Source: an uncultured Planctomycetia bacterium (GTDB lineage: Bacteria > Omnitrophota > Gorgyraeia > 1-14-0-20-64-10). From it: 54,943 bases of DNA. The translations under genes were made by a program, and so were the position numbers. Positions 28,845 to 37,265 of the stretch are shown here, one piece after another (within the stretch, counting starts at the first letter, position 1; each line of letters opens with the position of its first letter). The stretch is from positions 1-54,943 of the forward strand of contig CAZQXN010000012.1 of assembly GCA_964597545.1 (NCBI GenBank), read 5' to 3'. A model generated the notes under the pieces. It saw only the letters and a program-made list of their open reading frames with translations. It did no database searches and was not told where the DNA came from.

Positions 28845-31800
28845 TTATGCAGCCTGTGTCGGCTGCGGATCAGCAGTGGGGCGCTTGCGCAAGCGATTGA
28901 ACCCACCCTTGAGGTCCTCGACAGCCACATAGACGCAGGGGATCAGGATCAGGGTAAGGGTGGTCGCTGTAGCCAGACCCCACACCATTGCCAGGGCAGC
29001 TGGCCGCACGAGGGGATCGGTCCCGCCGATTCCATAGGCAACCGGCGTCAGTCCCACAACGGTGGTCAGGGTCGTCAGGATGACCGGGCGGAAGCGTAAG
29101 AATCCAGCGGATAAGACGGATCGCTTCAGGGAGCTTCCAGCGCGCCGAGCCCGATTGATGAAGGTGACCAAGATGATCGAATCATTAAGCACAACGCCGC
29201 TTAGACCCACCACCCCCAGAAGGGTCATGAAGCTCAGAAACTCGCCGTGCAAGAAGAAGGCCCACATGACTCCGATGATTCCAAAGGGGATCGCCATCAT
29301 TACCGTCAGCGGCAGCCCCAGGGATTGGAAGGTGGTGGCCAAAATCACATAGATGACTCCCACCGCAATCACAAAGGCCTTCCTGAGGCTGGCCATCGAC
29401 TTTTCGGTCTCTTCCTGAATGCCGCCGTACCGGATGGTGTAGCCAGGATAGCGATGGGGCAAATCCGAAAACTTCTCAAAGAGCTTCTGGTGCACCTCGA
29501 GAGAGGTCGTGACGGATTCGTCCACCTCGGCTGAAACGGTAATGACCCGTCTGCGATCCAGGTGCTTGATGAAGGACAGTCCCGGTGCTTGAGCGGTGCT
29601 GACCACCCGGGTCAAGGGTACCAGGTGCCCTGCGGGGTTTTCCACGTAAAGATCCTTGAGAGAGTCCAAATCCCAGCGGCTGGCCTCCGGGAAGCGCACC
29701 AAGACGTCGATCTCCTCGTCGGTCCGCTTGATCGTGGTCGCTTCAACTCCCTCGTAGGCGGCCCGAACTGTCTGAGCAATGTCCCGAACCCTTAAACCGG
29801 CCCGCTGGGCTTCCTTGGCATCCACCGAGATTCTGTACTCCGGTTTTCCGGGCTCGTAGTCGTCACGCACATCCTGAACGCCGGAAATCTGCCCGAGGAA
29901 GGCCTGGCATTCGCCTGCAATCTCCTGCAGGGTTTCTAAATCTTCACCACGGATGCGCACTTCGATCGGCTTGCCCACAGGTGGGCCAGGACGCAGCAGC
30001 TCATAGGAGACCTCTAACCCCTCTATTGTCCCCACCTGTTTACGAATACGCTCCGCGATTTCATCGGCGGAAAATCTCCTGCTTCTAGAAGAGGGCAGAT
30101 ACGCCTGGATCTGTGCTAAGTTCGTGCCCCGCCGGGTAAAGGGGTCTGCGATCCGCTCCCGATGCATCCCCAGCTGGGTCACAAAGTGGCTTAAGTCTTC
30201 TTTCGGGACGCCCAAGAGAGCCTCCTCAAAGGGACGAATCTTTTCGCTCAGCTCCTCCAGCGAGGTACCGGCAGGGGCCTCGGCACGCACAAAGAAGGTC
30301 TGGGCGCCGACAGGCGGAAAGAGGGAAAAGCGCATCACCTTGGCGGCAAAGAAAACCGTCACAACCATCGCAACACAGAAAACCGCCAACACCCACCAGC
30401 GCATCCTAAAGGCCAGCTTGAGGAGCCGCATGTAGGAGTGCCGGAGATTCTTGAACCAACGCTGACGGGAACCAAAGATCTTGCCGGCCTTTGCCCACCG
30501 GTGGGCGCCTGAGAAATCGGCAATGTGAGAGGGGAGGATCAGCAACGACTCCACCCAGGAAGCCAAGAGTGCAATGATCACCGTCAGGGGGATCACCATG
30601 ACAAATCTGCCGATTAAGCCGGTCATGAACATCAGCGGTGCGAAGGCGGCAATCGTGGTCAAGATCGTCGCACTCACCGGAGCGATCACCTCGGAGGAGC
30701 CCCGAATGGCTGCCTCCCGGGGGGGTATCCCCTGCTCCAAGTAGCGGAAGCTGTTCTCAGCCACCACAATCCCATCGTCCACCAGCATCCCCAACACAAT
30801 GATGAAACCAAACAGTGAGAGCAGGTTAATCGTCTGCCCCATGGTGGGCAGCAGGAGCAGCGCCACAAAAAAAGCCAGGGGGATACCAAATGCGGTCAAG
30901 AAGGCCATGCGGGGGCTCAAGAAGAGGATGAGTACGATTGTCAGGAAAACAATCCCCACAGAAAGGTTGTTGAGCAGAATCCCCAGCCGCCGGCGGACAT
31001 ACGTCAGTGTCAGATCCTCCAGCGCCAATACCTCTACCCCGTTGGTTAAGCGCGTGCCAAACGCTTCGGTGAAATCCTGCACCCGCTTGGCCAGGCGAAG
31101 GGTGTCGGCCTTCTCCTTCTTGACAACGACGAGGTTCACCGCCCGTTTGCCGTTCATCTTGGTCCACTGCTCACTCTCCTCAAGGGCATACCGGATCTCG
31201 GCCACATCCCCGACGGTCAACCAATTGCCGGCATCATTGCCCCGAATGATGACGGCTTTGACCTCCTCTGGGGTTTCAAACTCTCCGATCGTCCGGATCA
31301 CATGCTGTTCTCTGCCCACATAGAGCTTTCCGCCCGGAAGATTCAGATTCCGGGCGGCCAGTGCCCGGGTGACTTCATCCAGAGAGAGATGGTAGGCAGC
31401 CAGCTTCTTGGGATCCACCTCCACCCAGACCTGCGTATCCCGCCACCCCTCCTTGCGGACCGAGGAGACCCCCGAAAGATCCTTTAAGAGCTCCTCCAGC
31501 CGCTTGGCGGTCCGCTGAACCTCCCAGATGTCCTCCCCCATGAGCGAAACAATCATGATCGGATGATCTCGGGTCTCGATCTCCTCCACCAGAGGTTCCT
31601 CGGCCTCTTCGGGCAGATCCTGTGTGCGGTCGGCAGCCCTTTGGATGTCGTTGACGATCTTGCGCTTGTCCGGCGCGTCGGAATCCAGCTGGATGGTGAT
31701 CATCGACATCCCTTCGATGGAGGCTGAATGCATCTCATCGATGCCATCAACCTCATTGAGCTCATCCTCAATCGGGATCGTGATCAGCTTCTCCACCTCT

Positions 31801-31985
31801 TGGGGGGTGGAGCCGGGGTAAAAGGTCTGCACCGTCACCATGTCGTAGGCGACATTGGGAAAGGCCTCCCGCTGCACCCCGACAATCGCCAGGACCCCGG
31901 CAACAACAATGAGAACCGAGAGGAGGTTGACCAGCAGGGAGTTCTTGACTGAGAAGCGCGGCAAGGGGTTTACGGGGATGGTCAT
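28845..31985 (-). CDS. RND efflux transporter permease (AcrB/CzcA superfamily)
   Basis: 1046 aa; E.FP start; GMLVDDGIVVAEN; RFRPVILTTLTT; two-repeat TM architecture. Confidence 0.95.
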   Translation of the reverse strand: MTIPVNPLPRFSVKNSLLVNLLSVLIVVAGVLAIVGVQREAFPNVAYDMVTVQTFYPGSTPQEVEKLITIPIEDELNEVDGIDEMHSASIEGMSMITIQLDSDAPDKRKIVNDIQRAADRTQDLPEEAEEPLVEEIETRDHPIMIVSLMGEDIWEVQRTAKRLEELLKDLSGVSSVRKEGWRDTQVWVEVDPKKLAAYHLSLDEVTRALAARNLNLPGGKLYVGREQHVIRTIGEFETPEEVKAVIIRGNDAGNWLTVGDVAEIRYALEESEQWTKMNGKRAVNLVVVKKEKADTLRLAKRVQDFTEAFGTRLTNGVEVLALEDLTLTYVRRRLGILLNNLSVGIVFLTIVLILFLSPRMAFLTAFGIPLAFFVALLLLPTMGQTINLLSLFGFIIVLGMLVDDGIVVAENSFRYLEQGIPPREAAIRGSSEVIAPVSATILTTIAAFAPLMFMTGLIGRFVMVIPLTVIIALLASWVESLLILPSHIADFSGAHRWAKAGKIFGSRQRWFKNLRHSYMRLLKLAFRMRWWVLAVFCVAMVVTVFFAAKVMRFSLFPPVGAQTFFVRAEAPAGTSLEELSEKIRPFEEALLGVPKEDLSHFVTQLGMHRERIADPFTRRGTNLAQIQAYLPSSRSRRFSADEIAERIRKQVGTIEGLEVSYELLRPGPPVGKPIEVRIRGEDLETLQEIAGECQAFLGQISGVQDVRDDYEPGKPEYRISVDAKEAQRAGLRVRDIAQTVRAAYEGVEATTIKRTDEEIDVLVRFPEASRWDLDSLKDLYVENPAGHLVPLTRVVSTAQAPGLSFIKHLDRRRVITVSAEVDESVTTSLEVHQKLFEKFSDLPHRYPGYTIRYGGIQEETEKSMASLRKAFVIAVGVIYVILATTFQSLGLPLTVMMAIPFGIIGVMWAFFLHGEFLSFMTLLGVVGLSGVVLNDSIILVTFINRARRAGSSLKRSVLSAGFLRFRPVILTTLTTVVGLTPVAYGIGGTDPLVRPAALAMVWGLATATTLTLILIPCVYVAVEDLKGGFNRLRKRPTADPQPTQAA

Positions 31986-33448
31986 GATTCCAGTCCGCAG
32001 GTTGTTAAAAGGGTGTTCTCGGTGCGCTCAAGCGCCACCCCAGCCTGATGGTGGCGGACCAAGGCCTCGGCCTTGCTGCGCTGGGCAGCAAGCAGGTCTT
32101 CTTGAAAGTCAATCAAGGTCTGGACATTGGAGCGCCCCAACTCAAAACGCCTTTCCTGGAGAATGAGGCGCCTCTGGTAGAGTTCCTCGATCGCCTCTCT
32201 GGATTCCACCGACGTCTCCCAGCGCAACAGCTCGCGCACCGCCTCATCCACATCCCGCAGGATCTTGCGCTCCAAGAAGGCCAGCTCCACCAAGGCCTGG
32301 GCCTTCTGAAGCTGAGCCTCTTCGTGATCGGCGGAGGCTGCCCTGTTTCCAAAGGTCCAGCTGGCCTTCAGTCCCATAAAATAAGTCGGGTCCTCAGCCT
32401 TGAGGGCCTGGTTAAGGCTGGGACCATACTTCTGGTCCAAACCGTTGGCCCGGAATGAGGCCACCAGATCCACGCTGGGCAATAGATCGTTTTGTGTCAT
32501 TCGGACCTTGACCCGCCTGCGCTTGACCTCGCGCCGGGCAGCCTTGAGATCGCGGCGGTACTCCCAAGCCCGCCTCAAGCTTTCCTGAAACTGAGCCGGA
32601 TGCTGACCGAAGGCGAGAGACTCAGTCGGTTCAATCTCCAGATTGCTCTGATCCGAGAGCAAGAGCTTGAAGTTCTGCAGGGCCGAGGCAGTCTGGTTTT
32701 GAGCAACCACCAGCTCCTCTTGGCGCAGATGGACATTGGCTGAAGAATGGAGAAGCTCCGGCTCTTCGATCAACCCTAAGCCGAACTTATCTTGATTGGC
32801 CTGATCCAGAGCTTGGGCCCGCTTGAGAGCCTCCTCCTGAATGCGCATCTGCTCGCGGGCGAGGACCAACTCCCAGTAGGCAGTGGTCACTTCGGCCACT
32901 GAAGCTTCAATCCGGTCCACGGCAGACAGGTCTTTCTTCTCCACTTCCAACCGCGCAATCTCTACCTTGGCTCGGTCAATGATGCCGCCGGCATTCTTAG
33001 CCATCGCCTGGGTGATCCCTGCCCCCAAGCTGGTGGTAAAGGAGGGGTTGAGAGAGGCAAAGGCAGAGTTGCTGGAAGCCCGCTCATTGGAGAAGGTTGT
33101 GGTAAGTGTGGTACCGGTCTGAAACTTCTTCTCCATCTCCAGATCCATCACCGTTTCGGTTGAGCGGGTCCCTGCGATGCTGCTGGCAGCCTTGGCCTCA
33201 TCCAGCTCATAGTGTAGATCGGCAGTCAGGACCGGATCAAAGGGGGCCAGTGCCGCTTTGTTGCGGGTCTGAGCAATCAGGCGGTCCAACTCTGCCAAGC
33301 GGATGTCAAAGCTGTTGGCAACCGCTAGAGCCACACTTTCTTGTAGGGAAAGCTTGAGCGCACCGTCCCCGGATGCCTCCTGCGCCCACGCGCCGGGCGG
33401 CAGGGCAATCCCAAGGACCAGAAGAAGGCAGAGAAGGCGTTGTGTCAC
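31982..33448 (-). CDS. TolC-family outer-membrane efflux protein
   Basis: Signal peptide; LSLQE....A..N; V..AYW.L; LLP..DL duplicated OEP pattern. Confidence 0.9.
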   Translation of the reverse strand: MTQRLLCLLLVLGIALPPGAWAQEASGDGALKLSLQESVALAVANSFDIRLAELDRLIAQTRNKAALAPFDPVLTADLHYELDEAKAASSIAGTRSTETVMDLEMEKKFQTGTTLTTTFSNERASSNSAFASLNPSFTTSLGAGITQAMAKNAGGIIDRAKVEIARLEVEKKDLSAVDRIEASVAEVTTAYWELVLAREQMRIQEEALKRAQALDQANQDKFGLGLIEEPELLHSSANVHLRQEELVVAQNQTASALQNFKLLLSDQSNLEIEPTESLAFGQHPAQFQESLRRAWEYRRDLKAARREVKRRRVKVRMTQNDLLPSVDLVASFRANGLDQKYGPSLNQALKAEDPTYFMGLKASWTFGNRAASADHEEAQLQKAQALVELAFLERKILRDVDEAVRELLRWETSVESREAIEELYQRRLILQERRFELGRSNVQTLIDFQEDLLAAQRSKAEALVRHHQAGVALERTENTLLTTCGLES

Positions 33449-33903
33449 CGGCTGCCCTCGATGGCCCGTGTCAGCGCCTCACGCATGGCGCGCATGAACC
33501 GTTGGACCGTTTGGCGCTCGGTTTTTGGGAATTGAAGGAGAACGCCGGTAAAAAGCTTGAGGGCCCTGCCTTGAGTCTGGGCGGCAACCTTAATGCCGGC
33601 CGCGGTCATCTCAATCAAGGTGACCCGCCGATCGGTGGGATGCGGCATGCGCCGGATGAGGCGCTTGGCCTCCAGTTGATCCACCAGGTGAGTCACCGCC
33701 GGCATGCTGACCACCAAGGCCTTGGCCAGCTCCCGCATCTTGAGTTTTCCCGCGCGTACCAACGCCACTAAGACAGAGAACTGGCGCAGGGTTACTCCCT
33801 GCTTGGCAAGGTTCGTCCCAAGAAAAACAGACATGCGCAGTTGTATCCCCCGGATCATCTCCTGGAGCTGGGTAACCTCGCTGCTTGTTTTTTTCTGTGT
33901 CAT
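33445..33903 (-). CDS. MarR-family transcriptional regulator
   Basis: T..QF.VL; ELA; VT..VD.LE...LI.R..HP.DRR...I.MT..G; start re-placed at ATG33903. Confidence 0.93.
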   Translation of the reverse strand: MTQKKTSSEVTQLQEMIRGIQLRMSVFLGTNLAKQGVTLRQFSVLVALVRAGKLKMRELAKALVVSMPAVTHLVDQLEAKRLIRRMPHPTDRRVTLIEMTAAGIKVAAQTQGRALKLFTGVLLQFPKTERQTVQRFMRAMREALTRAIEGSR

Positions 33904-33955
33904 GGCATCTCCCTGGCGGTCTGCCGCCGGCACCCTCATTTAGTTCAATAGTATA

Positions 33956-34418: not shown

Positions 34419-35900
34419 CTAGAAGCGGTATCTCAAACCCAGGGAAGCGGCGAGAGACTCCCAGTTGGCCTCGTTGAAGCGAACGTCCGCGGCTCGCGCT
34501 GCCACTCCAAAGGTTCGGGCAATACCGGTTTCAGTCCACCACAACTGATAATTAGCGCTGAAGTGGAGCAGGAGGTCCTCAAGGATGGAGTAGGAAATAC
34601 CCCCGCCGCCTACAATCCCTTCTGCATTGGTGGTATCTCGAAAGCTCTTGGGGCGGGACAAATCTGTCCGCAAGTTCCAGTTCCCGATCCCCTGGTAATT
34701 GGCGAGATGGTATTCAAACAACCCAAAGCAGCGCCACTTCTCACCTGCCTTAAACTCAAAGCTCACGCCGGCCCAAGGCCCGATCCACCGGGCCAGGTAC
34801 TCTGAGTTTAGGTTGTCAAAGTAACCGGTGCGCGGGATGGTCTGAAAACCGTTGGTCATGGTGACGCGCTGCTCATGGAAGGAGTAGCCCAGCATGGGGA
34901 TAATGCTGAACTCATGGTCACCGGATTTAGGTTTAAAGGGGTAGCCCAATCCCAGCGAGATATCGACCAGGTGACCGTCATCCGAGGCGTTGTCTGACCG
35001 GGAGTACTCAGATGTCCGGTTGTCCCCCGAATAGTCGGAGTCCCGGTTATCCCCGTTAATGATCCAGGCATAATCCATGGAGCCGCGCACCGCGAGAATG
35101 GAGTCGACCACCAGCCAGAGATCCCCTTCGACCTGATAGCCCTGCAGATCCTCCCAGGTCAGCTCCGAAAGAACATTGGGGCTGGATCCGTCGATGTTGC
35201 CTGCAATGTTCCAATTAAAATCATCCTCCCGGTAGCCCCCCAGCAGCGAGACATCCCAGTGCACCCTGGACCACCAGCTGGTATCCGTAATCTCGCTCTC
35301 TTTCCAATCGGAATAGCCTGAGGTTGGCGGCAGGATCGGCCCTTCCTTGCCCCAGCGGTTCCATTCCAGCGGCTCGGTCCCTTGGGCAAGCGGGGATTCT
35401 GATCCAAAGGTATATGCAGAGGTTGTGTCGAGATGATCCCCGGCAGTCGGCGGAAGCAGTGCCGGTGTCGGCAAATTGACGGTGGCGCGCCCCTTCAGGC
35501 GGGTAAGCGCTTCTAAGTTCTTGTACCGAACAACCAGGTGGGGATGATCTTCCGCAAGAATGGCTTTATCGATGGCCAGGGCGCGCTCAAAGAGCGCCTC
35601 GGCCTCACCGTAGCGCTCAAGTGACATATAAAAGGCGGCCAGGTTGTTTGCTGCGGTTGCAATGTGGGGATCGTCCGGATGAAAAGATCTTTCTGCCATC
35701 CGAAGCGCCTCTTGCGCCAATGGAAGGGCTTCAGTGTGGCATCCCTGCTGATAAAAGGAGACCAGCTGGGCATTGAGCTCAAGCCATGCCAGCTCGTCGG
35801 CATCAGACCGGCTGGGTGCCGAGATGATCCAGGCCGTCGCCAGGGCGGCGGCAAAAAAGCGTTGGGCAGTGGTGTGAATCATCTTGAATGTTGCTTCCAT
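34419..35900 (-). CDS. TPR-repeat protein fused to an omptin-like outer-membrane beta-barrel
   Basis: Signal peptide; TPR (NNLA..Y....Y.EAE.L..RAL.I); SELTW and DSD motifs; amphipathic strands ending LGLRYRF; start uncertain. Confidence 0.7.
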   Translation of the reverse strand: MEATFKMIHTTAQRFFAAALATAWIISAPSRSDADELAWLELNAQLVSFYQQGCHTEALPLAQEALRMAERSFHPDDPHIATAANNLAAFYMSLERYGEAEALFERALAIDKAILAEDHPHLVVRYKNLEALTRLKGRATVNLPTPALLPPTAGDHLDTTSAYTFGSESPLAQGTEPLEWNRWGKEGPILPPTSGYSDWKESEITDTSWWSRVHWDVSLLGGYREDDFNWNIAGNIDGSSPNVLSELTWEDLQGYQVEGDLWLVVDSILAVRGSMDYAWIINGDNRDSDYSGDNRTSEYSRSDNASDDGHLVDISLGLGYPFKPKSGDHEFSIIPMLGYSFHEQRVTMTNGFQTIPRTGYFDNLNSEYLARWIGPWAGVSFEFKAGEKWRCFGLFEYHLANYQGIGNWNLRTDLSRPKSFRDTTNAEGIVGGGGISYSILEDLLLHFSANYQLWWTETGIARTFGVAARAADVRFNEANWESLAASLGLRYRF

Positions 35901-35950
35901 GGAGCAGTGTACAACAGCGAACGGGGTAAATCCAGAGAGCTTACAAGAGG

Positions 35951-35976
35951 GACGCCCCGCCAATCGGCGGGGCGTC
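35951..35976 (-). terminator. GC-rich hairpin terminating the micropeptide gene
   Basis: GACGCCCCGCC-AATC-GGCGGGGCGTC 11-bp stem about 25 nt after the stop; weak U-tract. Confidence 0.65.
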
Positions 35977-35999
35977 GTAGTTTCAGAAAGGATGGACTC

Positions 36000-36062
36000 T
36001 TATCGGCGCTTCTTCTTCTTGACGACCTTCTTCTTCTTTGCTGCTTTCTTTTTCTTTGCCAC
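36000..36062 (-). CDS. 20-aa Lys-rich micropeptide MAKKKKAAKKKKVVKKKKRR (not in the ORF track)
   Basis: AAAGGAGGG SD 8 nt before GTG; own promoter and downstream hairpin. Confidence 0.8.
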   Translation of the reverse strand: MAKKKKAAKKKKVVKKKKRR

Positions 36063-36119
36063 GATTGTTTCCCTCCTTTCCATCAAAGGAACAGGTATGA
36101 ACTGCTCACTGTTACAATC

Positions 36120-36148
36120 AGAATACATGATTGCGTATTAATGTGCAA
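36120..36148 (-). promoter_or_regulatory. Sigma70 promoter of the micropeptide gene
   Basis: TTGCAC-17-TATTCT with an A-rich UP-like tract upstream (36160-36180). Confidence 0.65.
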
Positions 36149-36185
36149 GCACTGATTGAATTTTATTTTTTATTTTTTTTCGGAA

Positions 36186-37265
36186 TTAATTCGCAGGTGT
36201 TGTCTGTGTGACGTAAACCTGCTGCGTGGGATAGGCGAACTCGATGTTCTGTTTTTCAAATTCTTCTTTGATCCGAACGTTGATCGCCTGCTGAACATCC
36301 ATGTAGGTGTTGTAATCAGGGCTTAACACGTAGAAAACCACTTCAAAGATCAATGCAAAGTCACCGTACGCTTTAAAGTGCGCGCGGTCAAACCGGGCCA
36401 TCTTCTGCTCTTTGACCGTCCCTTCAAGAATCTTGGGGATCGCTTTGACTTGATCTGATGTCGTCTGGTAAATGACGCCCAGGGTAAACAATACGCGGCG
36501 CTGTTCCATGCGCTTGTAGTTTCGGATGCGCGAGTTGGTCAGATCCGTATTGGAGAAGACCAGCTGTTCCCCGCCCAAGGAACGGACACGGGTCGTCTTA
36601 AAACCCACATGCTCGACGGTTCCGAGCATCTCGCCCACAATGATGAAGTCGCCCACCTTAAAGGGTTTGTCCAGGAAGATACAGAAGGAGCTGAAGGCAT
36701 CCCCCAGAATCGCCTGAGCGGCCAAGGCCACCGCGATGCCGCCGATCCCCAAGCCGGCCACCACAGAGGTGATGTTGATCCCCAGGTTGTCCAGAACAAA
36801 GACCAGTCCACCCACCCAGAGCATGACCCGGACAATCTTGGATAGGTTCTGGGCCACCACGGCGCTGGTGGGATCTTCTGCTTCAAAACGCCCCACCCAC
36901 TTGCGCAGGAAGAAGGTGAAGATCTCTTCAAGGATCTGCACCACCTTGAAGGTGATGACCACCACAAAGAAAATTTGCAGGGCCCGTTCGATGCCTGCCG
37001 GCAGCGCCAGGGACCGTGTGGCCGCGTAGAGGGCAACTAAGACGTAAACGATGGGCCCCAAGTGCCGCAAGAGGCCAATCAGGAAATCATCAATGTCGGT
37101 GGCGGTCTTCTTGGCAAGGGCGTGGAGGCGGTTGATCACCACCAGCTTGATCACCTGAAGGAGGATGAGGGCAGCGACGAAGGTGCCGAGGGCGGTCAGG
37201 TAGTTCAACACCGTGTTGCCAAAATAGCTGGCGGAAACCCAAGCCGGAAGTTGATCTGGACTCAT
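36186..37265 (-). CDS. mscS: Small-conductance mechanosensitive channel
   Basis: AGLGIGGIAVALAAQ; DKPFKVGDFI; G.VE.VG..TT; FAYPTQ. Confidence 0.93.
   Translation of the reverse strand: MSPDQLPAWVSASYFGNTVLNYLTALGTFVAALILLQVIKLVVINRLHALAKKTATDIDDFLIGLLRHLGPIVYVLVALYAATRSLALPAGIERALQIFFVVVITFKVVQILEEIFTFFLRKWVGRFEAEDPTSAVVAQNLSKIVRVMLWVGGLVFVLDNLGINITSVVAGLGIGGIAVALAAQAILGDAFSSFCIFLDKPFKVGDFIIVGEMLGTVEHVGFKTTRVRSLGGEQLVFSNTDLTNSRIRNYKRMEQRRVLFTLGVIYQTTSDQVKAIPKILEGTVKEQKMARFDRAHFKAYGDFALIFEVVFYVLSPDYNTYMDVQQAINVRIKEEFEKQNIEFAYPTQQVYVTQTTPAN

Follow-up and report, generated by a model that had tools for sequence, protein, structure and literature searches.

The window analysed here is a 54,943-nucleotide (nt) stretch of DNA, positions 1 to 54,943 of contig CAZQXN010000012.1 (assembly GCA_964597545.1), from an uncultured Planctomycetia bacterium assigned by GTDB to the Omnitrophota. 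On its minus strand, just past a gene for an mscS-type mechanosensitive channel, we find a short open reading frame (ORF) for a 20-residue hyper-basic peptide, MAKKKKAAKKKKVVKKKKRR, preceded by promoter-like boxes and a Shine-Dalgarno (SD) sequence and followed by a hairpin. The initial annotation had proposed that this is a stand-alone gene, a claim that is well supported by a syntenic counterpart in a genome of the same family and by look-alike units in seven further families of the phylum. The fuller reading, in which a real, separately expressed micro-gene would give rise to a free polycation that binds DNA, RNA or ribosomes, stands in our estimate, made from sequence comparisons, an even chance of being correct.

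The minus-strand elements described in the initial annotation (A/T-rich tract, promoter boxes, SD, GTG codon, 20 codons, TAA codon and 11-bp hairpin; Table 1) were recovered base for base, and their order and distances are those of an expression unit. After the GTG codon the frame reads GCA AAG AAA AAG AAA GCA GCA AAG AAG AAG AAG GTC GTC AAG AAG AAG AAG CGC CGA TAA, and the predicted product contains 12 Lys and 2 Arg residues in an xx-KKKK period of six (70% basic residues, with no acidic and no aromatic ones). The open frame extends further upstream to an ATG at 36128, which would yield 42 residues; this codon overlaps the -10 box and has no SD, for which reason the extension was dropped, and the SD-led GTG is likely the start codon. 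The A/T-rich tract is one of only seven regions in the 2.04-Mb genome with at least 22 A/T per 24 nt. The hairpin is predicted to fold with -27.2 kcal/mol (z = -4.7), none of 200 shuffled sequences folding equally well, and perfect 8-bp GC-rich hairpins number only 44 in the whole genome.

Comparison with the 19 other genomes of the same family, all from other genera, reveals a counterpart of this arrangement in one of them, G007, which is the only one with a close mscS orthologue (62% identity, E 1.2e-152; the other five matches have 24-28% identity). There, 92 nt past the mscS stop codon, an SD (AAGGAGGGG) is followed by ATG, a 30-codon Lys/Arg ORF (MPVKKRKRPTKRKTAKKRTTRKKATKKRRR) and a GC hairpin (GCCCCGCC...GCGGGGC) whose position matches that of the hairpin in the query genome. 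Alignment of the two intergenic regions pairs TTGCAC with TTGCAT and TATTCT with TAACCT across the same 17-nt spacer (TTGCAY-17-TAWYCT), and the SD stretch AAGGAGGG is invariant; this layout is kept despite differences at 33% of the aligned bases. The outer neighbors differ, with DUF6941 (query) and DUF4870 (G007) upstream of mscS, and a TPR-Pom gene (query) and a gene for a Crp-type regulator (G007) downstream of the micro-gene, and therefore the conserved part consists of mscS plus the micro-gene. The two peptides are alike in composition and in their ...KKRR(R) end, not in sequence. Synteny thus supports orthology for G007 only. The initial annotation had named the lack of a conserved counterpart in relatives among the outcomes that would speak against the gene; a counterpart was found in G007, with look-alikes elsewhere.

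These look-alikes come from two pattern surveys of 401 Omnitrophota genomes, which used narrow patterns and partly hand-picked loci, and whose counts should be taken as existence proofs and not as frequencies. The first pattern, GGAGG-N4-10-DTG-N3-12-(AAR)4, was matched in 196 of the 401 genomes; among 30 of the matching loci most were Lys-rich N-termini of ordinary proteins, with one stand-alone unit besides the query (L057 in G300, 24 codons followed by a hairpin). Twenty further matches were hand-picked for recurring N-termini: six are stand-alone ORFs of 10-29 codons (e.g. MAKKKKATKKKAAKKKKK, MAKKKKAATKKAAPKAKKAKKK, MAVKKKKAAKKKTTKKKAAKKKKK), 13 encode proteins of 122-154 residues in which a Lys tail is joined to a conserved barrel-like domain, and one encodes a 52-residue Cys/Gly-rich peptide. 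All seven stand-alone units of this survey (10-29 codons) belong to a single family, f33, and all carry the SD AAAGGAGGTG. TTGACA-type promoter boxes are present in six of them. A clear hairpin leading into a T-rich run lies 3' of the reading frame(s) in six (none was seen in L066), and six follow a homolog of the ribosome-silencing gene rsfS, as judged by tblastn similarity to the rsfS region of the query genome; the Pfam RsfS domain was found in both of the f33 upstream ORFs tested. In the query genome rsfS (contig C14) is directly followed by argS with no micro-ORF between them, and the micro-gene follows mscS instead. At one f33 locus the downstream gene carries a lumazine-binding domain; the identity hypA, considered for the f33 downstream gene, was abandoned as Pfam gave no confirmation.

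The second pattern, ATGGCN-N0-3-(AAR)4-N3-33-(AAR)3-TAR, misses longer and Arg-containing members, those of the query genome and G007 included, and its yield of seven among the 401 genomes is a lower bound, to be compared with one match for a reversed-pattern control. The seven matches fall into six families (f50, f33 twice, f7, f47, f52 and f32), and all of them are in frame from ATG to stop, though the pattern left the frame free. An SD 5' of the ORF and a hairpin terminator 3' of it are present at each of the five new loci; in G222 the SD precedes an upstream in-frame ATG, which adds a Cys-bearing N-terminus. Within the family of the query genome, the pattern KKKK-xx-KKKK-xx-KKKK was found in none of the 19 other genomes. 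In total we collected 13 stand-alone units with strong SDs and 10-30 codons from eight families, i.e. seven besides that of the query; a clear hairpin follows the reading frame(s) in 12 of the 13, with a T-run within a few bases in 11.

Analysis of the encoded peptides indicates that positive charge is the property kept. Basic residues account for 55-75% of each of the 13 peptides compared, acidic residues are absent, and the spacers are Ala, Val, Thr or Pro. Their length (10-30 residues) varies by repeat-like gain and loss of units, and an alignment of eight of them has only M1 and one K as invariant columns. Arg makes up none of the basic residues in 11 loci with local GC of at most 0.49, a share of 0.14 in the query (GC 0.57) and one of 0.42 in G007 (GC 0.66), a trend that is weakened by the fact that the low-GC loci were found by Lys-only patterns, so that it partly reflects the method of discovery. 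In every unit, the start codon defined by the SD puts the (AAG)n tracts into the Lys frame, never into the Arg or Glu frames. Since Arg replaces Lys as GC rises, charge appears to be what is maintained; together with the choice of the Lys frame this suggests that a translated product is selected for positive charge, and argues against both a purine element acting at the RNA level and a sensor of Lys codons.

Judged by its sequence features, the micro-ORF is not a chance ORF. The query genome contains 24 (AAR)4 runs on both strands, three of which lie 18 nt apart within the micro-ORF. Among the 76 ORF/start combinations of 10-80 codons with at least 50% Lys plus Arg in this genome, the micro-ORF ties for the top Lys plus Arg share (0.70) and is one of four with an SD core of at least five bases. 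Codon choice (AAG for 10 of the 12 Lys residues, near the genome AAG share of 0.70) is uninformative either way.

Several observations weigh against the interpretation of the locus as a gene for a free polycation. No promoter was called by a consensus scan, since only 7 of the 12 box positions agree with sigma-70, and no terminator either, since the hairpin has no T-run after it. A peptide search with the G007 peptide, being blind to low complexity, fails to retrieve that of the query, and a phmmer search with the same 30-residue peptide against 1.84 billion representatives gave no matches. The distribution is patchy, as seen from the triple-KKKK search within the family, and the position after mscS is shared by G007 only. 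A more universal presence would be expected of a bulk polycation needed by all cells, though the patterns used are narrow. Finally, the units in other families may be convergent, because homology cannot be demonstrated by sequence. The blank of the peptide search carries no weight in either direction, and neither do two other results: a profile built from eight peptides fails even on its own genome because of low complexity, and a relaxed Lys/Arg pattern within the family gave counts about equal to those of the reversed control.

The proposed function can be outlined as follows. An mRNA of ~150 nt would be transcribed from the micro-gene's own promoter just past mscS, and the SD-led GTG would direct synthesis of a 20-residue peptide carrying 14 positively charged side chains; the high expression envisaged in the initial annotation is predicted from such signals only. 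A peptide of this kind would be unable to fold, and as a free polycation it would bind polyanions without sequence specificity, the candidate targets being chromosomal DNA, rRNA or ribosomes, and other RNA. Binding would neutralize charge and aid compaction, much like a detached tail of histone H1 or Hc2, or a gene-encoded polyamine. Protamines, the C-terminal tails of histone H1 and polyamines are unstructured polycations that neutralize and compact nucleic acids; of these, protamines are eukaryotic proteins rich in Arg, and polyamines are metabolites. They are functional analogs of the poly-Lys peptide only, and no common ancestry is implied. Omnitrophota cells measure ~0.2 um, according to PMC10066038. 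The query genome has one HU gene, and a single search of this 93%-complete genome found no Spermine_synth domain, which does not imply a lack of polyamines. This background of small cells, one HU gene and no Spermine_synth match fits a role in compaction, without being proof of it. We put forward a broader version of this proposal only tentatively, and consider it rather unlikely to hold in full: Omnitrophota would encode a bulk polycation in the form of abundant poly-Lys/Arg peptides of 10-30 residues ("histone tails" or peptide polyamines) that compact DNA and ribosomes in cells of ~0.2 um and perhaps replace spermidine-type polyamines, with Cys-bearing sister peptides as a metal- or redox-switchable version.

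Among known proteins, there is a likeness to Hc2 (HctB, PF07382) of Chlamydiae, a bacterial group related to Omnitrophota. Both are rich in Lys, spaced by Ala, Val or Thr, and of low complexity. Hc2 spans 165-237 residues depending on the number of pentamers, its length varying by gain and loss of Lys-rich units (PMC2848022); the poly-Lys peptides too vary in length via gain and loss of short Lys-rich units. The 20-mer differs in having about a tenth of the length of Hc2, a six-residue xxKKKK period, a stand-alone gene and no structured part. Neither the 20-mer nor the 42-mer matched any Pfam family, PF07382 included, at E <=10, and a genome-wide search of the query genome with the HC2 model gave at best 18.2 bits, to an unrelated 437-residue frame (cut-off 40 bits). 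In the ESM Atlas the G007 peptide retrieved only unnamed clusters of 34-39 residues at 0.90-0.91, the nearest named cluster being HC2, with a weak 0.79. Within the phylum itself, the micro-gene resembles a family of Lys-tailed small beta-barrel proteins (122-177 residues, no Pfam family; L071-L073 and L075-L084), which occur in the same genomes and share the MA(x)KKKK start and a Lys/Ala/Val-rich tract. There, however, the tract forms the tail of a protein with a folded domain (...THYFPHV.AAV.KLK.PL..GD.IKIKGHTTDF...), whereas in the micro-gene it makes up the entire product. The query genome has a tailed member of this family (C7:27401-27934, 177 residues) and an untailed one (C10, 95 residues).

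The initial annotation had also drawn an analogy to tiny ribosomal proteins (eL41, bS22, bTHX), and an alternative explanation would make the peptide a stoichiometric ribosomal or ribosome-associated micro-protein sitting in a defined rRNA pocket, as eL41, bTHX, bS22 and bL37 do. These proteins, known from actinobacteria and Bacteroidota (bS22, bL37), Thermus (bTHX) and eukaryotes and archaea (eL41), have 24-33 residues with >50% Lys/Arg. The 20-mer resembles them in size and charge, in being encoded by a tiny gene of a kind often left unannotated, and in its strong translation signals, and six of the seven f33 units follow rsfS homologs. However, the micro ribosomal proteins are conserved in sequence, whereas the poly-Lys peptide keeps only its composition over a length of 10-30 residues. 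No model in Pfam or NCBIfam matches the 20-mer at E <=10; in particular, the peptide does not match the bS22 profile NF047430/PF08213 (COX24_C), lacking the AKHKRKKR..RHKK core. The phylum does possess a bS22-like peptide of the conserved type. In the query genome it is encoded right after hisG by a 31-codon gene of a size that escapes annotation (MPNLKKKRRKKIAKHKRKKRLRRDRHKKKQK; C27:15573-15668 (+) = L033:3574-3669), with E 3.9e-4 and 20.7 bits for PF08213, below the 23-bit cut-off, and E 0.23 for NF047430; its relatives (MPCGRKRKRAKMAKHKRKKRMR...) in L039, L040 and L043 keep the AKHKRKKR..RHKK core in all three cases (MPCGRKRKRAKMAKHKRKKRMR..RHKKR). Moreover, rsfS of the query genome is directly followed by argS, and the micro-gene lies outside any ribosomal-protein operon. 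We therefore consider the ribosomal explanation unlikely; the analogy fits poorly, and a loose nucleic-acid-binding polycation would fit better.

It is also improbable that the micro-ORF is a regulatory leader or upstream ORF, in which translation or stalling on poly-Lys controls the hairpin and read-through, or senses the status of Lys-tRNA or the ribosome. The hairpin lies 23 nt past the stop codon and has no T-run, a same-strand gene follows ~50 nt further, and in the predicted fold of the whole mRNA (36085-35985, minus strand) the SD region GGAAAGGAGGG pairs with UCCAUCCUUUCU just 3' of the stop codon (i.e. the SD is paired with CCAUCCUUUCU directly behind it), leaving the ORF looped. However, this pairing was rejected as a shared feature, there being no equivalent in G007 (z = -1.7), and the hairpin plus T-run, present at 11 of the 13 loci, has the appearance of a complete terminator. 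The downstream genes also differ from locus to locus (TPR-Pom in the query, a Crp-type regulator in G007, the lumazine-binding-domain gene in f33, and others), and replacement of Lys by Arg would defeat a sensor of Lys codons.

Very unlikely, in turn, is the explanation that there is no gene at all and that the tract is a chance or decaying run of Lys codons, e.g. the remnant of a Lys-rich N-terminal tail of a longer gene, beside the mscS terminator. Many longer proteins of the phylum do begin with MAKKKK (the 13 tailed proteins among the 20 hand-picked matches), and the promoter went uncalled in the consensus scan. Against this, three in-frame KKKK blocks, a 9-base SD, a stop codon and a hairpin would have to coincide at 57% GC, the layout is kept in G007, and there is no coding remnant past the stop codon. 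The least probable alternative, and a decidedly remote one, is an exported polycationic peptide (antimicrobial or cell-penetrating) directed at prey or hosts, or one acting on the membrane or the MscS channel: Omnitrophota have been proposed to be predators or parasites (PMC10066038) and the micro-gene adjoins mscS in the query genome, in G007 and, independently, in G349 (family f50, just upstream of mscS), but the peptide has no signal peptide or hydrophobic segment and no transporter gene is adjacent. As to the channel, a poly-Lys micro-ORF flanks only one of 29 mscS-orthologue loci in 151 genomes of the class, a basic micro-ORF adjoins mscS at none of six metagenome loci and none of two loci from named Omnitrophota metagenome-assembled genomes (MAGs), and linkage to mscS as a rule was rejected on these counts; the two next-closest orthologues (63% and 60% identity) are followed by ordinary genes, a finding that speaks against the polycation micro-gene as well.

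The features of the locus and its neighbors are collected in Table 1. The query genome is a 93%-complete assembly of 61 contigs with 57.3% GC. All three genes lie on the minus strand, and read-through from mscS into the micro-gene is possible because no hairpin separates these two. The Pom domain of the downstream gene had at first pointed to Chlamydiae; this placement was dropped because the best named relatives of the mscS product are from Candidatus Omnitrophota MAGs (59% and 66% identity), which makes it probable that the organism belongs to the Omnitrophota. The start of the TPR-Pom gene, ATG 35900, is the likely one and was picked by eye; the longest ORF extends to 35963. A 163-residue plus-strand ORF (35664-36155) has no Pfam family, runs antisense to the 5' end of the neighboring gene, and was treated as spurious, and an Rfam search of the locus gave nothing at the gathering score. 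Further along the window (28845-33939, minus strand) genes for a MarR regulator, an outer-membrane efflux protein and an AcrB-type transporter form an ordinary RND efflux operon.

Table 1. Features of the poly-Lys micro-gene locus and its flanking genes in the window
Feature	Position	Strand	Remarks
mscS-type mechanosensitive channel gene, upstream neighbor	36186..37265	-	Pfam MS_channel_1st, MS_channel_2nd, MS_channel_3rd
A/T-rich tract, UP-element-like	36159..36180	-	directly 5' of the -35 box; putative UP role, from sequence
-35-like box TTGCAC	36143..36148	-	3 of 6 positions match TTGACA; no call in consensus scan
-10-like box TATTCT	36120..36125	-	4 of 6 positions match TATAAT; 17-nt spacer from the -35 box
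Shine-Dalgarno sequence AAAGGAGGG	36071..36079	-	8 nt between SD and start codon
Micro-ORF, GTG start 36062, 20 codons, MAKKKKAAKKKKVVKKKKRR, TAA 36002-36000	36000..36062	-	
11-bp GC hairpin GACGCCCCGCC-GATT-GGCGGGGCGTC, loop GATT	35951..35976	-	23 nt 3' of the stop codon; probable terminator, no T-run
TPR + Pom (outer-membrane barrel) gene, downstream neighbor	34419..35900	-	Pfam Pom E 2.1e-59, TPR families

A DNA search of 40 relatives with the locus gave as its sole match a 21-nt piece of the hairpin in G034, another genome of the same class. This core (35953-35973) is 100% identical at three G034 sites, on contigs C41, C32 and C6 (L002, L003 and L005). GC hairpins of the CCCCGCC/GGCGGGG type, of which the query genome has four, may be a shared form of terminator. 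Among the sequencing runs that contain the locus no RNA run is listed; seven DNA runs from three studies contain it in whole or in part, two of them with at least half of the words of the stretch. In reads and contigs from four of the DNA runs, one X1 contig spans 35905-36077 with no differences and no variants were seen, while the matches to the remaining contigs were all short, of low complexity and derived from other organisms.

Other small basic genes were noticed as well. The query genome contains a second basic micro-gene (C7:15635-15709 (+) = L031:3636-3710) with a TATAAT-like box, the SD AGGAGG, 24 codons (MTCKCKCTAKKKKAKKKVKKAKRK), and a hairpin with a T-run; a search for this Cys+Lys micro-gene by synteny, via its DUF2721 neighbor, found nothing in five sister genomes. 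Cys-bearing poly-Lys peptides are also encoded by the second ORF of the f33 unit L070 (MVTCSCCCVKKTSKKASKKAKKK, read by eye) and probably by L090 of G222 (MSCGRCGSMAKKKKKKAKKK), and they may represent a sister class rich in Cys and Lys. In addition, the query genome has a 27-codon Arg/Lys-rich ORF (MSIPRKRKSRRRRKRMSGKAHRSKKRK; C19:26927-26844 (-) = L032:3928-3845) with the SD AGGAG; only 2 nt separate the end of this ORF from the ATG of a PilZ-domain gene. Finally, L074 (G369:C9, minus strand) has 52 codons (MAKKKKTYEKPNVKK...SCGACVGCGSCACGSCGCAGCS), with a basic leader-like N-terminus and a Cys/Gly/Ala-rich C-terminus, and resembles the precursor of a modified peptide.

A full-text search of the literature found no paper on bacterial poly-Lys micro-genes, the class is in none of the family libraries searched (Pfam, NCBIfam), and the main texts of phylum-wide Omnitrophota genome papers (PMC10066038 among them) contain no mention of lysine, histone, or small proteins or ORFs. 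If the peptide is made, these units would constitute a gene class missed by standard gene callers because the ORFs fall below length cut-offs, and their products would rank with the shortest that bacteria are known to make for a structural and not a regulatory role. The query genome adds a high-GC member with a GTG start, in which the gene persists against mutational pressure, and the takeover by Arg from Lys as GC rises suggests that selection acts on charge. Its place in the genome varies: the gene is found after mscS in the query genome and after rsfS in f33. The micro-gene would allow a direct test of the way in which nucleic acids are compacted in ultra-small cells.

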